Source of the DNA: a virus
IMG/VR virus record: IMGVR_UViG_3300027769_000875
Location: 54,974 to 118,973 of that record
Direction: 5' to 3' (one strand)
DNA: 64,000 bases
The position numbers and the translations under genes are program-made. Position 1 is the stretch's first letter, and every line of letters starts with the position of its first letter. Of this stretch, positions 6,923 through 57,203 are shown piece by piece. The notes under the pieces were generated by a model that was not told the origin of the DNA, made no database searches, and saw only the letters and a list, made by a program, of their open reading frames with translations.

Positions 6923-9900
6923 TTAGTATATGTCATCAAAATAAACTCCTCCAAATTCCATAGAGCCTGGAGCTGTGTACATTGTTCCTCCAAATCTTTG
7001 TTGAATAAAGTTTTGACCGTACATCTGTTGTTGTGTTTTTGTTTGTGCATTTGCTCTATTCATGTTTTGAGAAATACAAGCCTTCTGCATATTAGATGCA
7101 TATTCTTCTTTAGCATCTTGAGGCATTGTTGTATCATTCTTTACTTGAGCGTATGCATCAGCATATGCTTTTGAACAATCCGCTTGTGTTGTTGCAGCAG
7201 TACCTGGAGAAACACTTGTATCAACTGCAGCTAATGGATCTTTTCCAGCACCTGACCATGCAAATGTAGGAGAAAGACGTTGTGCATGCCATGCATTTGG
7301 ATACATAACTCTTAAAGAATTGTCTTTTTGAACATTGCCCCAACCTGTACCAAAAAGCATTGCACCTTGTGCATCTTTCTTATTACGTTGTCCAGCAAGC
7401 TCTTCAACATATGTCGCATACTCATTGTCAAACTTACCACGTAACATTGTATTTTTGTAATCAACATCAGTATTAAGTTGCCCTATTGTTTGAAGATAAG
7501 GATTGACAATTTTAGTTGTGTTACCTTCTTCAACATCAGCAATGTCTCTTGACAATTGTTCAAACCCTTGGTTTGCACCTGCAGTAAATGCTGTTTGAGC
7601 ATCCATAGTATTCATTGCCAAATCCTGACTTTGTTTTACTAATCCTGTAGTACCAGCAATTCTGGTAATTGGATTAATTGTATCATACCCACTATAAGCA
7701 GCATTCATTTGTCTTAACACAGGTGGTGTGTTAGGAATTATTTGACGCTCATTGGTCATGTAATTTACAATATCTGGAGCAAACCATGTGTCTGGTTGCG
7801 GTGGCTGCTTGGTTGGTGGTGGTATTTTTGTTGGTGTACCACAATTCTTAGTAGCATCGTCAGCAGTTTCATACTGAGTAGCCTTGGTAACTGTTTTACC
7901 ATTTATCTCACCACTTGGTGCAACAGGTTGTTCACCTTCTTTGTAAGTAACCGTTTTAGTTTCTTTTGTACCATCAGAATACTCAACACAATAAAATGTA
8001 TTTTTTTCACCTGGTTTTGTTTCAGGTGGAGGTGGATTCAGATTATAACCAAGTCTTTCCTCTAATGTTGTGTTAGTACTGTACCTGTCAATTCCAGATA
8101 CTTGACCTTGAATATCAAATACAGTTTCATCATTTACACCAGTTTGTTTATGACTAGCTAGTCCTTGAAAATCTGGATTATTTAAAAGAGCACGTCTATA
8201 AGAAATGTATGTACCTTGTCCTAATTCATTTTTAGAAAAATCAATGTCACTAAGATTTACCTTACCATCTTTAGCTTGATTATCTACGATAATTTGTCTG
8301 GCTTCTTTGTTTACGTAATTACCTTGATAATCAGAAAGTGTTGGATCTCCTTTTGCAGCAACATTCTGACCAGCTTTAAAGTTAGGATCTGACCATGGAC
8401 CTGTTCCTGATGTTCTATCACCATAACCAAACGCTGCCATTCTTGCATTATTCTCTTCAAATTGCATCATTGTATTAATGATTTTTTCAGGATCTGCTGC
8501 AAGTGCTTTTACGTCTGCGCCATATAAATCTGAAAACTTTTTTCTTGTGTTTCTGTCTTTACCAGTGTACATTCGTAGCTCTGGATCTGCGACATCTGCT
8601 TTATACTGAGTTACAATAGCATCTCTAAATTTAGTATTTAATCGTATTTGATTATTTGCATTCTTAAAGTCAAGATATGCTTGTGTATTACCATTCCATC
8701 TTGATTCAATTTCCTTTTTCTCAGAAGCATTGAGATTGTCTGCTTTTATCCAGTCATAAGAACTACGAGTTATTTCTACTCCTGCAGGAATAGCTTCTTT
8801 AGTTGTTTCATTTCTTCTAACAATGACATTACCAGTGGCTTGATCTTCTAAAACTTGTACTACAGTATTATGATTTGGATCACCATCACTACCTTTATAA
8901 GTTATTGTATAAGCATTCATTGGTTTACCACCATTTTTGTTTGGATCAGTTACCACTTTTACCTCACTCGTAACTGGTTCTCCTCCACCACTTGTTCCAC
9001 CACCTGGATATTTAGGTAAAACAGAACCACCTCTGTCATAACGCAGTTTACCATTTTCATTAATAAGACCGCCATATCTAAAAACTTTATCTCCAATGGT
9101 GACATTAGAACCAACTGCTGGCATTGTACCACCAAGTCTCATTCCTCCAGATCCAAAAAGTTTATCAAAATCTTGATCTGTAAATCCACCTTCATATTTT
9201 GGTTTTGCCTGTGTTGGTTGCGGTTGTCTTCCTACTGGCGCTACTACATCTGTTTTTTTCTCTGTAGTATTCTCCTTTTTTATAGGCGTAACAGTTGTCT
9301 GTGGATTGATTTTATTTTCTTGCTCTAATAATTGAATTGCATCCATTGGTGCTTTTGCTGCAGGAAGTGCAACTTTTTTACCTTCTTTTGTAGAGGCTGC
9401 TGTATTTAATGAATCAACCCACGCTTGATTTGATACTTCTAATTGTGCACCATCTTGTGTTTCTTCAAACCAAACCATTTGACCATCCACATTTTTACCC
9501 ATTGTAAATATTGAGTTTGGTGCAGCTTTAAGTTTATATGGTTGAGCATAACCTTTTGCATCCTTTGCACTATTAGAAGGATTTTGAACTTGATTTATTG
9601 TTCTAACGTTGTCAATTACTTCTGGTGCATTATAGTTTAGAAAACCTTGTCTTTCATTTGTGTGTGTCAATCCTTTATTAGCTATAGGTGCAATTGTTGC
9701 AACAGTAGTACCTTTTATTTTGTCATGACCTTTTGTAATTTCATCATATATTTCAAAATAAGTTTTGAATCTAGGCCCATCAAACCATGAATCAGACCCT
9801 TCAACAACATCATCTCTATTAAGATTTATTCCAAGGATTTCTGTTTCGTTAAATAAAAAGTCAGTAGGGTATCCATAGCGAGGCATAACTTCCTCATCCT

Positions 9901-53991: not shown

Positions 53992-54066
53992 ACTTCAATT
54001 TTTGGTATCATTAGCCACAAAGATTGTCGCAGTAGATGGCTATATAACAGTTTAAACACCCACGTT

Positions 54067-54531
54067 ATGCAAAGAGCACGTATGTTAGCACATTTGGAAC
54101 TAGATAGTAGACATGACTTAGATAGTTCTTTTTTTATATCAGATAGAGAGTTTCATGAAGTACTAGGTAAGTTACATTCTACCTATAATATGAATACTGA
54201 TTCCCTTGAGGAGTTTCATATTAAGAATAGAGTTAACTTCCTGGACCTTGGTTATGGTGATTGTCATTCCTTTGTGTTTGATAAGCATCAGTACTTCTCT
54301 TTTGTCTGTATGAAGTCTGTAGGCTGGCAAGGTGATAAAGATATAGACTCTCAGTGCTATGTCAAAGTCCCTTACAAGACTACTGAAGAGATTATGGAGG
54401 AGTATTCCTTCTTGTTTGAGAACAAGCCTTCTCCTAGACTTCCTGATGATGATATCTTTGGTGTCAAGCCTGATACTAAAGATACACTTCCTCAAGATTT
54501 GAGAGATCCTGAGTGGTATGAGTTTGATTAA
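54067..54531 (+). CDS. Hypothetical protein
   Basis: Likely start MQRARML at 54067, because the track's upstream start lies within the terminator. Confidence 0.55.
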   Translation: MQRARMLAHLELDSRHDLDSSFFISDREFHEVLGKLHSTYNMNTDSLEEFHIKNRVNFLDLGYGDCHSFVFDKHQYFSFVCMKSVGWQGDKDIDSQCYVKVPYKTTEEIMEEYSFLFENKPSPRLPDDDIFGVKPDTKDTLPQDLRDPEWYEFD

Positions 54532-54559
54532 GCTCGTACCACTTTTTTTCCTTATCATT

Positions 54560-55453
54560 GCAGACTGAGTTGCAAATCAGTTTGTTTTGAGAAAGCCATT
54601 CCTATTGATCATGTAGGAATTTGCAGGTAAGAGTCCTGATTATAAGTATACATTGTTGTTGCCCTCAGAGTTGAAATGCTCATGGCGTATGCGTTAAGCT
54701 CCCTTGTGGAGTTACTGAAACAACAGGTCAGCCTTCGTGACCATAGGATAAACCAGTGATGGTATAAAGTGATGTGTTGGTAACACATTGCGCAGAGAGT
54801 AATCTCTGTCTACTGAAAGGTACTACATTCCCTGTAGTATGGTGTGCTCGTGGCCTAACGGTTGATGCACAGTATTACAGAACTTCTGACAGGCAGGAGT
54901 TTGAGAGAGAAATCTCAATAGAAGAGTGTAGTAAGCAAATTGTAGTAGGAGTCGCCAACTCTGAAGCGTTTGTTAGTTTTTTGTAGTCTGTTGGTAGAAA
55001 TACCGTGGACAATTACAATCAACAGTGAGTATCCTTGGCAGGTGAAAACAGAAAGAAGTTGTATCTAAACTACTCAAAAGGTAGCATGATGCTGTGCGCT
55101 TGGGCCACTTCTTTCACAAATCCTGGACCGCTTAAAACTTTAATTATCTTAAAGAGAAAGCAAAAGTGTCCAAGCACGTATTGGTGATAATACTCTTATT
55201 CTGCTGTAATATGCAGATGTCTGATGTTCGCAAGACAGATGACAAGGGAAATGATTACTATCTAACTAACAGGAGGCATCTTGTAAATCCTTTGCAGGGA
55301 AGTTGGTAGGAAAAGGAACCTATGAGCCAATATGTAGTGGTCAGACAGAAACCTATTCTGTTGAGTATGTCGTGTACTTGTTTAACCGCAAGTGTGTGTA
55401 AGATGACGAAAGTTGTCAGAATCACGATATGAAAGGTCAACACTCAGCCTTTT
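54560..55453 (+). ncRNA. Large structured ncRNA, GOLLD-like (~890 nt)
   Basis: No credible ORF and a dense array of hairpins, several with GAAA/GTAA loops. Long-range and pseudoknot pairs include TCAGAGTTG 54665-73 with CAACTCTGA 54956-64, and GCTTGGG 55098-104 with TCCAAGC 55169-75. A closing 3' domain GTTGAGT-ATGTCGTG...CACGATAT...ACTCAGC is followed by a T-run. Confidence 0.7.
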
Positions 55454-55464
55454 GAATTTTTTAA

Positions 55465-55905
55465 GGACAGCATTGTTATAAGTATCACTCCATTAAAAGC
55501 TGATACAAGACTTGTTATAGCTGTAAGCAAGTTATTTTACATTTTTACTGACTGATAGTCAGGCAGTTGTAGAAAATATGATGGGTCTGAATTGACAGAC
55601 TAAGAGCAGTACGCTGAGAGGTTGCCTAAGTACACGGTGTAAAACGAACGTCCTCATCATTAGCACATTACAAGTTACTTAATCCTTAACAGGAAGATAA
55701 TTGGAATGTGCACTACAGCTGTGTGTAAAACTCGTTTGAGCGAGTATAAATAGTTGCTTAAGCTCAAAGCGTTGTAGAAATACAGGTGCACTGCATGAAG
55801 TTTGTAGGGTATACGCCAGTCGTGCGAACCCTATAGGAGTGATTTCCTAATGCCATACGAAGTATAGTAGTATGGCATTGAACATATCAACAGTTTTTTG
55901 ATGTC
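55465..55905 (+). ncRNA. Second large structured RNA (~440 nt), family unassigned
   Basis: No ORF. Multiple helices (55578-85/55653-60, 55663-69/55705-11, 55804-10/55828-34, 55849-58/55870-79). Loop AGCTGTA (55519-25) is complementary to TACAGCT (55714-20). Confidence 0.55.
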
Positions 55906-55929
55906 TAAACAAATTAAATCTTAAAGTAT

Positions 55930-56352
55930 ATGAAAGTATTAGTGAACAAATGCTATGGTGGTTATGGTACGTCTGTTGAAGCAGGTCTTGAATGGCTTAA
56001 AAGAAACAACAAAGTTTTTACTGTTATTGATGACAGTTATAGTCTTGTTGTAGAAATGGATGGTGAAAAGCACTACATAGACTTAGACAGAGAAGATCCA
56101 ATTCTTATAGAGTTGTTTGAAGAGAGAGGCAGTAAGTTTGTCTCTGGAAATCATGCAGAACTTGTATTAGTTCATATTCCTGACAACTGTGAGTATTCTG
56201 TTGGAGAATATGATGGTCAAGAATGGATTGAGGAGACATGGATCAACGTAACACTTGAAGAACTAAAGAATGGTTTGTCAGAAGACAAATTACTTCTTGC
56301 TCAACAGGTTTCTTGTATAAGAATCGCTGATGAGAACCCTACTAGTAACTAA
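55930..56352 (+). CDS. Widespread phage protein of unknown function (NKCYGG family)
   Basis: MKVLVNKCYGGYG...REDPILIEL...G..AELVLVHIPD...GEYDGQEWIEE is a recurrent phage-protein pattern. Confidence 0.7.
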   Translation: MKVLVNKCYGGYGTSVEAGLEWLKRNNKVFTVIDDSYSLVVEMDGEKHYIDLDREDPILIELFEERGSKFVSGNHAELVLVHIPDNCEYSVGEYDGQEWIEETWINVTLEELKNGLSEDKLLLAQQVSCIRIADENPTSN

Positions 56353-56367
56353 TTAAATTACATAGAG

Positions 56368-56469
56368 ATGAAGGATAAAGTGATGGATGGATTAGACATT
56401 GGCTATAAGTTAGCCATTATTATGTGGTTTATGCTTGAATTGTATTGTTTTGCTACTGGTAAGTACTAG
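56368..56469 (+). CDS. Small membrane peptide (33 aa)
   Basis: MKDKVMDGLDIGYKLAIIMWFMLELYCFATGKY; below the track cutoff. Confidence 0.35.
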   Translation: MKDKVMDGLDIGYKLAIIMWFMLELYCFATGKY

Positions 56470-56504
56470 TAGTAAAAATGCTATAACCGTGGGAAGTTAA
56501 AGCA

Positions 56505-56548
56505 AAAATGGAGGAGATGAAATACTCTCCTCTGTTTTTTTACCTTTG
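56505..56548 (+). terminator. Terminator followed by a TAnnTTTG promoter box
   Basis: GGAGGAG...CTCCTCT hairpin with a T-run, then TACCTTTG at 56541-56548. Confidence 0.55.
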
Positions 56549-56580
56549 TGAGAAATTTATTAACGTTTAATTATATACAA

Positions 56581-56790
56581 ATGCAGAAGATACACTTTGC
56601 TACGAGAGTAATAGCGAAGCTTGTACCTAAATCTGATGCATCTAACGCTTCTAATAATCTTCGTCAGGAGTTAAGCGCACAAATCAATAAGCACAAGGTG
56701 TCTATTGATAGAAGTGTGTTTAAGAAAACTGATGATGAGAAAGTAGAGCTGAAGATTGCTAAGATTAAGTGGAAAGCAAGTCAGAACTAG
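56581..56790 (+). CDS. Small basic hypothetical protein
   Basis: Likely start MQKIHF downstream of the promoter box. Confidence 0.5.
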   Translation: MQKIHFATRVIAKLVPKSDASNASNNLRQELSAQINKHKVSIDRSVFKKTDDEKVELKIAKIKWKASQN

Positions 56791-56948
56791 TTTACTGTTG
56801 TTAAAAAAATCCTACTAAAAAGGTTGGCTGGAGCTTGGATAACCATAAGGCTCTGTTTTTTGTTTGATGTCCTGAGCTAAAGTAGCTCGCTCTCCACTAT
56901 GATAGGGTGTCTTAGGATGCCCTATTATGGTATACTAATTAGTGAACT

Positions 56949-57203
56949 ATGAGCACAAAACTATCTAAAAGAATACCTATGAGTAGTGTATTAGATCAAA
57001 TTAGTAGCAATACATGGATAATTAGATTCACTACATACGATGGTTTAACAGAACATATTGGTGCACAAGACAGAATACGCACTGAAGTTCTTGAAATTGA
57101 TAACATTGATGAAATTCCTCCTGACGTTTTACATACAAACAAAGGTGAAATAGTCAGTGGAGAGTTATTAAGTAATGGCAAGTTTAAATACAATTGGAAA
57201 TGA
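56949..57203 (+). CDS. Hypothetical protein (84 aa)
   Basis: ORF coupled to the next gene. Confidence 0.5.
   Translation: MSTKLSKRIPMSSVLDQISSNTWIIRFTTYDGLTEHIGAQDRIRTEVLEIDNIDEIPPDVLHTNKGEIVSGELLSNGKFKYNWK

Follow-up and report, generated by a model that had tools for sequence, protein, structure and literature searches.

An IMG/VR virus record contributed the 64,000 nucleotides (nt) of DNA analysed here (the window), in which a structured region at positions 55465-55905 lies directly 3' of GOLLD, a large non-coding RNA (ncRNA); an earlier note on this DNA had read the region as a second, unassigned RNA gene of about 440 nt. We put at about 70% the probability that it instead forms a modular trailer at the 3' end of GOLLD, within the same transcription unit, in an uncultured tailed phage from freshwater, cut by a Pistol ribozyme, and that there is no second large RNA gene. 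The region is a patchwork of an inserted hairpin block, a decayed twister-type element, a Pistol and the folded leader of the next gene and, judging from the sequences compared, its constant part is the Pistol together with the ~100-nt leader that follows. Which modules are present and in what order, how they come and go among relatives, the helices with their covariation and the RNA-library contigs that lead from GOLLD into the insert are direct observations; co-transcription through the Pistol, cleavage and the purpose of that cleavage we infer. The features are the following.

54545-55452, plus strand: the upstream large RNA, GOLLD, with its conserved 3' half at 55051-55450
55463-55535, plus strand: module A, an insert of 73 nt that forms small hairpins, GACTTGTT-ATAGCTGTA-AGCAAGTT among them
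55536-55729, plus strand: the decayed twister-type element (X'), aligned base for base with the intact elements of L123 and L237
55573-55712, plus strand: the inner domain, in the position of the twister P5 arm, with its 3' half at 55661-55712
55730-55791, plus strand: Pistol (RF02679), 55 bits (gathering score 34.5) over all 68 model positions, E 2.8e-07 for a search of the whole window
55792-55890, plus strand: the leader, with hairpins 55801-10/55828-37 and 55848-58/55870-80 and a possible helix 55839-43/55886-90
55930-56352, plus strand: the downstream gene, encoding 140 amino acids (aa), phrog_16527, unknown function, E 1.1e-13

A cmscan search of the 64-kb window at gathering thresholds returned the Pistol as its single match, and this ribozyme occurs once in the genome. 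The alignment with the model includes the P1 hairpin, P3 with a GAAA loop and, at 55785-55787, a GGU that matches the GGU of the model. The P1 loop UUUGAG pairs with CUCAAA at the P2-P3 junction in a 6-bp pseudoknot, the positions of which covary in other phage pistols (TCTGAG/CTCAGA, TCTGGG/CCCAGA and TCACGG/CCGTGA). Pistol cleavage is described, in passages of PMC6154101, as occurring at a G-U step between P3 and P2; the predicted cut in the window falls between G55786 and U55787. The earlier note had called the region unassigned, unable to match it to tmRNA, RNase P, 6S or an intron, and had named a match to an Rfam family as the test of novelty. Because Pistol is a known Rfam family, found above its gathering score in the middle of the region, the claim of novelty fails by the measure that the note itself proposed.

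The RNA upstream is recognized by the GOLLD model RF02032 over its full length (model positions 1-416, 117.8 bits, E 6.3e-32, below the gathering score of 150), once in the genome. GOLLD is among the largest bacterial and phage RNAs and builds a 14-subunit cage. The same GOLLD RNA is present in several relatives, gathered via the 140-aa protein, short DNA patterns and blastn within the fetched loci and denoted here by L numbers (L003, L006, L166, L383 and others), and the Pistol is conserved in these four. What lies between the two RNAs differs among the relatives. In L003 (= L004, L130 and L178), GOLLD is followed by 5 nt and then by the Pistol; in L006 (= L187), the Pistol comes after a different insert of 163 nt, with an intact twister-type element. 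L383 has the arrangement of the window minus 55463-55535, that is, the decayed element and then the Pistol, and L166 and L369 show the same order as the window, module A included. The first 265 nt of the region are therefore dispensable and composite: L003 has none of them, L006 carries other sequence in their place and L383 has 73 nt fewer. The modules are also found separately elsewhere among other contigs.

These observations bear directly on the proposal of the earlier note, namely one undescribed ncRNA of ~440 nt, closed by a helix that joins its two ends, with a contact between a hairpin loop and a distant strand, and acting with the upstream RNA as a two-RNA system. Much of the underlying description stands: this is a structured, non-coding plus-strand RNA sequence directly 3' of a large ncRNA, no plus-strand open reading frame (ORF) of at least 30 aa lies within 55432-55929, the next gene begins at 55930, and several of the local helices are real. 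All seven named helices are present, with Watson-Crick (WC) and G-U pairs as listed, all on the plus strand.

55509-16/55526-33, plus strand: helix, 6 WC and 2 GU pairs of 8
55519-25/55714-20, plus strand: contact of the loop with TACAGCT, 7 of 7 paired
55484-91/55836-43, plus strand: end-joining helix, 8 of 8 paired
55578-85/55653-60, plus strand: helix, 7 WC and 1 GU pairs
55663-69/55705-11, plus strand: helix, 7 of 7 paired
55804-10/55828-34, plus strand: helix, 6 WC and 1 GU pairs
55849-58/55870-79, plus strand: helix, 10 of 10 paired

Furthermore, the minimum free energy (MFE) of the 441-nt stretch is -124.3 kcal/mol (z -3.87), a value equalled by none of 100 dinucleotide shuffles, and the MFE fold of the whole stretch includes the end-joining helix. 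Covariation, which the earlier note had proposed as a check, supports 55578-85/55653-60, 55663-69/55705-11 and 55849-58/55870-79; neither of the two long-range pairings that would tie the stretch into one RNA is conserved, and complementarity of this kind is at chance level. The stretch holds 4 perfect complementary 8-mers against 2.18 +/- 1.74 in approximate dinucleotide-preserving shuffles, 11 of 60 of which reach as many, and 12 perfect complementary 7-mers against 7.45 +/- 3.15 (8 of 60). Of the end-joining helix, GGAGTGAT is retained in L003, L006 and L383, where its partner ATCACTCC is absent; thus, the 3' partner sequence is conserved in close relatives in which the 5' 265 nt are missing, replaced or shortened. 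The GTGAT of this helix has a conserved local partner at 55886-90, and TACAGCT, the proposed target of the loop, is the 3' strand of 55564-72/55713-21, which corresponds by homology to P5, a stem for which the twister-type family described below shows covariation. With a known ribozyme in its middle, a dispensable 5' part and components that occur apart from one another, a single unassigned RNA of ~440 nt is highly improbable. A dedicated two-RNA system finds no support either: RNA-library contigs of relatives pass from GOLLD straight into the insert. As for the start of the region, which had been placed right after the T-run ending the first RNA, that T-run is in part insert sequence, and L003 at this point reads ...CAGCCTTTCAAACTCG.

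The decayed element at 55536-55729 belongs to a family of twister-type elements in which ~40 nt at the 5' end and ~22 nt at the 3' end are constant and the 24-270 nt between them vary. One 19-mer of the family has exact matches in 63 viral and 5 GTDB contigs, and 53 distinct full copies were collected. The common architecture runs from U-A-A through P2 to a P4 hairpin, the loop of which forms T1 with a 3' GGG, and includes a P5 arm between P4 and the 3' strand of P2; the P4 loop can also pair with CC after P2 (T2). Among 22 aligned members, 98.1% of the cells are paired, and two-sided changes occur in 15 of 22 pairs, a level reached by none of 500 shuffles. The T1 pseudoknot, between the L4 loop and the 3' strand, shows a compensatory change from CCC/GGG to CAC/GUG in one member, and the arms of P4 are replaced but remain complementary in variants (CTCAC/GTGAG, TCTAC/GTAGA and CTAGC/GCTAG). 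The elements are intergenic and co-oriented with their neighbours, often lie 46-57 nt before an ATG and often occur several per contig. This architecture resembles a type-P1 twister with the optional P5 stem.

The Rfam twister models gave no match to the elements of L123, L034 and L210 at E up to 10, RF03160 gave none on five records that carry the family, and no Rfam model scored even a 73-nt minimal member, the minimal L210 element yielding no Rfam rows at all. A hatchet or twister-sister identity was considered and dropped, there being no model match. More generally, searches of the insert, leader and twister-type elements against other Rfam families gave chance-level rows with E >1 alone. 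The slot right after GOLLD offers a different kind of comparison. In L151 and L170, it is occupied by an element of 52 nt with an RF03160 (twister-P1) score of 56.8 bits (E ~1e-13), less than the gathering score of 67.2; in the homologous locus L177, the same slot holds a twister-type element and shares with L151 and L170 a GTAC/GTAC P1 and the downstream sequence. According to passages of PMC6154101, twisters have two pseudoknots between L4 and L1/L2 and a U-A cut step, and P5 is present in 1% of the annotated examples. The helices, the covariation of the pseudoknot and the slot shared with a model-detected twister suggest that the family is an uncatalogued branch of the twisters in which P5 is obligatory and bears cargo, and the members of which are predicted to be self-cleaving.

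Two further contigs add to the description of the family. In L191, positions 9202-9539 hold two twister-type elements head to tail and without a spacer, the 3' end of the first entering the TAATG of the second. An intact element that contains the inner domain of the window is present in L237, a 3.5-kb contig from a metagenome-assembled genome in GTDB (Phycisphaerales bin); this contig gives no clue to a host because it is probably phage DNA in the bin.

By its alignment, the copy in the window is a descendant of this family that has lost the catalytic features. It is 83% identical to the L123 element over 169 nt (55558-55725), a span that reaches the 3' strand of P4, and both flanks can be aligned. 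Three helices are retained: one is P2-like (55538-42/55723-27), a G-C pair in it having changed on both sides to A-U, another is a P4-like hairpin (55548-52/55558-62), and the third is the P5 stem (55564-72/55713-21). Compared with L123 and L237, the copy lacks both the AA that follows the U of the cut site and the GGGG of the 3' strand; L4 reads CTGATAG, not TTCCCAAGG, and the CCC/AAGG loop motif is gone. R1, our model of the intact family, found nothing at 55536-55729 at E up to 10, either over 54000-57000 with filters off or over the whole genome, where it had no match at any other position, and the twister covariance models likewise gave no match to the decayed element at E up to 10. Given the loss of the cut site and of both pseudoknot strands, we conclude that this copy is no longer a ribozyme. 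L166, L369, L383 and one RNA-library contig share its decayed form.

The inner domain (55573-55712) is conserved while the ribozyme around it decays, which makes it a candidate functional RNA. Of the 37 pairs predicted, 6 are maintained via two-sided changes among eight sequences drawn from different contexts (6 of 45 among four sequences), and the 3' half of ~52 nt is nearly invariant save for compensatory changes in its closing stem. The domain lies inside intact twister-type elements in L123, L237, L373 and L379 and outside any element in L371 and L367, and two RNA-library contigs (X15 record 8 and X18 record 18) cover it exactly. One can therefore ask whether 55536-55729 is a functional accessory RNA that is held on GOLLD because its own ribozyme died, with the Pistol trimming the 3' end. 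Consistent with this possibility are the retained helices with their double change, the compensatory changes and the near-invariance of the 3' half in eight contexts, two of them outside twisters, the recurrence of the decayed form in other relatives, and the presence of 0.92-0.98 of the sampled words of the query 54532-56352, decayed element included, in each of 8 DNA runs. In addition, tRNAs covalently linked within GOLLD have been discussed as possible cage cargo in part of the preprint of Kretsch et al. (bioRxiv 10.1101/2024.12.08.627333). Against it, L003, the closest relative by flanking protein (90% identical), lacks the inner domain, and the retention may only reflect recent decay because the sequences are few and closely related. 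On balance, we consider such an accessory role unlikely. A bolder version, in which the inner domain, above all its near-invariant 3' half, is a new functional RNA class, mobile as a twister P5 arm or free, that is tethered to each GOLLD subunit because the releasing twister is disabled in this phage and so would be displayed on or enclosed in the nanocage in many copies, with its 3' end set by the Pistol, appears more doubtful still.

As a separate observation, ten metagenome contigs of one unrelated family (L364-L366, L368, L370, L372, L374, L376, L381 and L382) have the exact 18-mer TTACAAGTTACTTAATCC in common with the inner domain. They lack the 3' half of that domain, and the match could be chance or a shared short motif.

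Evidence on transcription comes from four metatranscriptome runs, as contigs that hold relatives of the locus. Two contigs bridge the end of GOLLD into the insert: X16 record 9 corresponds to 54661-55608 and X17 record 13 to 54714-55715, past which the latter continues into unlike sequence. Exact RNA-library contigs also cover 55500-55674 and 55572-55723. RNA-contig cover is absent at 54448-54595 and from ~55724 onward, save for low-depth pieces of a diverged relative; the contig ends at 55715 and 55723 and these uncovered stretches do not amount to a transcript end at the Pistol site. Because contigs bridge GOLLD and the insert, the data fit one precursor with both rather than two genes. Terminator-like hairpins with T-runs flank the block of GOLLD, trailer and 140-aa gene, at 54511-54544 and 56504-56539; in 54000-56800, there are 6 terminator-like sites against 1.1 +/- 1.2 in shuffles. 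Promoter-like sites show no excess over shuffles (10 against 8.3 +/- 3.3).

Most likely, then, GOLLD, the trailer and the 140-aa gene would be transcribed together as one transcript, and the Pistol would cut itself between G55786 and U55787, parting GOLLD and the trailer from the downstream mRNA. Of the two products, GOLLD plus trailer would end in a 2',3'-cyclic phosphate, and the mRNA for the 140-aa protein would begin with a 5'-OH and have its leader protected by hairpins. Relatives that carry an intact twister-type element or a Pistol within a few bases of the GOLLD 3' end would be cut to the same effect, nearer to that end.

How regularly a ribozyme follows GOLLD was surveyed across 18 distinct GOLLD 3' ends followed by 100 nt or more of sequence, identified with nhmmer and classed by pistol-like and twister-type patterns. 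The survey covers full GOLLD matches, each locus once, so that the partial matches L190 and L174, duplicate loci and L160 (10 nt downstream) are omitted; L154 and L163, in which a GOLLD 15-mer is followed by an element, are uncounted since nhmmer called no GOLLD there. In 8 of the 18 loci, no more than 10 nt separate the 3' end of GOLLD from the start of a ribozyme element: a Pistol in L003, a twister-type element in L006, L172, L224, L192, L177 and L146, and the model-detected twister in L151. In L234, a twister-type element starts at +88, and in loci of the window type a relic is followed by a Pistol further on.

This recurrence also bears on a third explanation, according to which the region is simply a long untranslated 5' leader for the 140-aa gene, transcribed from a separate promoter 3' of GOLLD, and the Pistol is a leader insulator unrelated to GOLLD. 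Twister-type elements do lie 46-57 nt before an ATG commonly in other contigs, pistols recur between genes at many unrelated phage loci (the fetched contigs contain 18), and the leader hairpins are strongly conserved, all of which would suit such an arrangement. Nevertheless, RNA-library contigs bridge GOLLD and the insert, promoter-like sites are no more frequent than in shuffles, and the start of a ribozyme within 10 nt of GOLLD in 8 of 18 loci suggests that what is being defined is the GOLLD end; we regard a free-standing leader as quite improbable.

The Pistol-cut GOLLD trailer must itself be weighed against several observations. Eight of the 18 GOLLD loci have no ribozyme within 300 nt, as screened for pistol-like and twister-type patterns alone, so that a ribozyme is not obligatory after GOLLD; one of the eight, L175, has a weak R1 match ~0.4 kb further on. 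Conversely, GOLLD is present in only 3 of 50 records that carry a twister-type element, which characterizes this element as a general intergenic device and not a GOLLD accessory. The first P2 pair of the Pistol is a U-C mismatch in both the window and L003, and its activity could therefore be reduced. The minus strand of the 441-nt stretch folds nearly as well as the plus strand (z -3.63), a promoter may lie inside the trailer or the leader, and the RNA contigs reveal neither transcript ends nor strandedness and may include DNA carried over into the libraries.

The 73-nt module A is a recent insertion; L383 lacks exactly 55463-55535, and its sequence to either side of the gap aligns at 94%. 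A copy with 98.6% identity occupies L018 7908-7981, immediately 5' of a twister-type element, and an 18-mer from module A occurs in two viral contigs alone, L018 and L166; an RNA-library contig of a relative (X16 record 11) contains 55468-55534 with other flanks. Module A was considered as a tRNA-like RNA or a small ribozyme, and both ideas were rejected when ARAGORN and Rfam gave nothing. L018 carries a second RNA island at 7400-8120, which consists of a twister-type element (7612-7798), ~110 nt, module A and a second twister-type element with fully swapped P4 arms (TCTAC/GTAGA). On the minus strand of L234, at ~2700-2720, a hairpin GCAAGT-TAGCTGTTGAG-ACTTGC lies directly 5' of a twister-type element; the terminal hairpin of module A has swapped arms relative to it and a similar TAGCTGT loop. 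A hairpin with a conserved loop may thus be a regular 5' neighbour of the twister-type cut site.

The leader is ~94-95% identical in L003 and L006, the downstream proteins of which are 90% and 74% identical, respectively, to that of the window, and its 11-bp hairpin contains one compensatory pair, U-A to C-G. We rejected the leader as a wider motif: a leader 17-mer gave 10 pattern matches, of which 4 are close relatives and 6 unrelated high-GC coding DNA, so that it recurs in close relatives alone. Between the 140-aa gene and the terminator-like hairpin lies a hydrophobic-rich ORF of 33 aa (56368-56469). At the other end of the locus, the first 180 nt of the non-coding sequence that precedes the GOLLD 3' half (54545-54724) are 88.9% identical to L034 6502-6680 and to L054, contigs in which RF02032 finds no GOLLD and a twister-type element follows ~350 nt further on; these 180 nt may be a separate module instead of part of GOLLD.

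The virus record as a whole comprises 118,973 nt, is 94% complete according to CheckV and carries phage genes for the major head protein, the portal and the large terminase. The DNA runs that contain the locus are labelled freshwater or lake metagenomes, a label used here as description alone. In a blastn search of GenBank phages in distant mode, the query 54532-55929 had no match, and ARAGORN found no tRNA or tmRNA in the window.

The survey yields a testable rule, namely that a ribozyme lies a few bases 3' of GOLLD in about half of the related loci examined; because of this recurrence, ribozyme cleavage may define the mature 3' end of GOLLD and uncouple the downstream mRNA. The origin of the GOLLD ends is undescribed in the literature that we searched. 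The locus also illustrates how a ribozyme can degenerate into a folded scaffold that is no longer catalytic, with conservation of the domain that it carries. The recurrent ribozyme after GOLLD, the decay from ribozyme to scaffold and the orphan inner domain all appear worth following. In the literature search, GOLLD appeared together with pistol or twister only in Weinberg et al. 2017 (PMC5737381), without a link between them in the text searched; the string 'self-cleav' occurs 0 times in the available text of the preprint of Kretsch et al., and we found no paper on self-cleaving ribozymes in crAss-like phages.

Among known systems, the intact family compares most directly with twister type P1 (RF03160), with which it shares U-A-A, P2, P4 with T1 and T2, P5 and the slot after GOLLD; it differs in that its P5 is always present and carries the variable 24-270 nt, and in having no Rfam score. 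The Pistol of the window resembles the described pistols in its full match to the model, P1, 6-bp pseudoknot, P3, G-U junction and location near phage genes. However, its first P2 pair is mismatched and, whereas the described pistols are mostly from Firmicutes according to the passages of PMC6154101 on which this comparison draws, it comes from a freshwater phage and lies directly behind GOLLD or its trailer. The HDV-like theta ribozymes of gut phages (PMC10879173) offer a parallel in that a small self-cleaving ribozyme beside a phage ncRNA gene is proposed to process the RNA; the ribozyme class, the partner RNA (tRNAs) and the habitat are different. Finally, like the GOLLD and phage tRNA-ncRNA islands (RF02032; PMC5737381; preprint of Kretsch et al.), the locus combines a large phage RNA with ncRNA neighbours, possibly co-transcribed, but in the window, which is free of tRNAs, these neighbours are predicted self-cleaving ribozymes and orphan folded modules.

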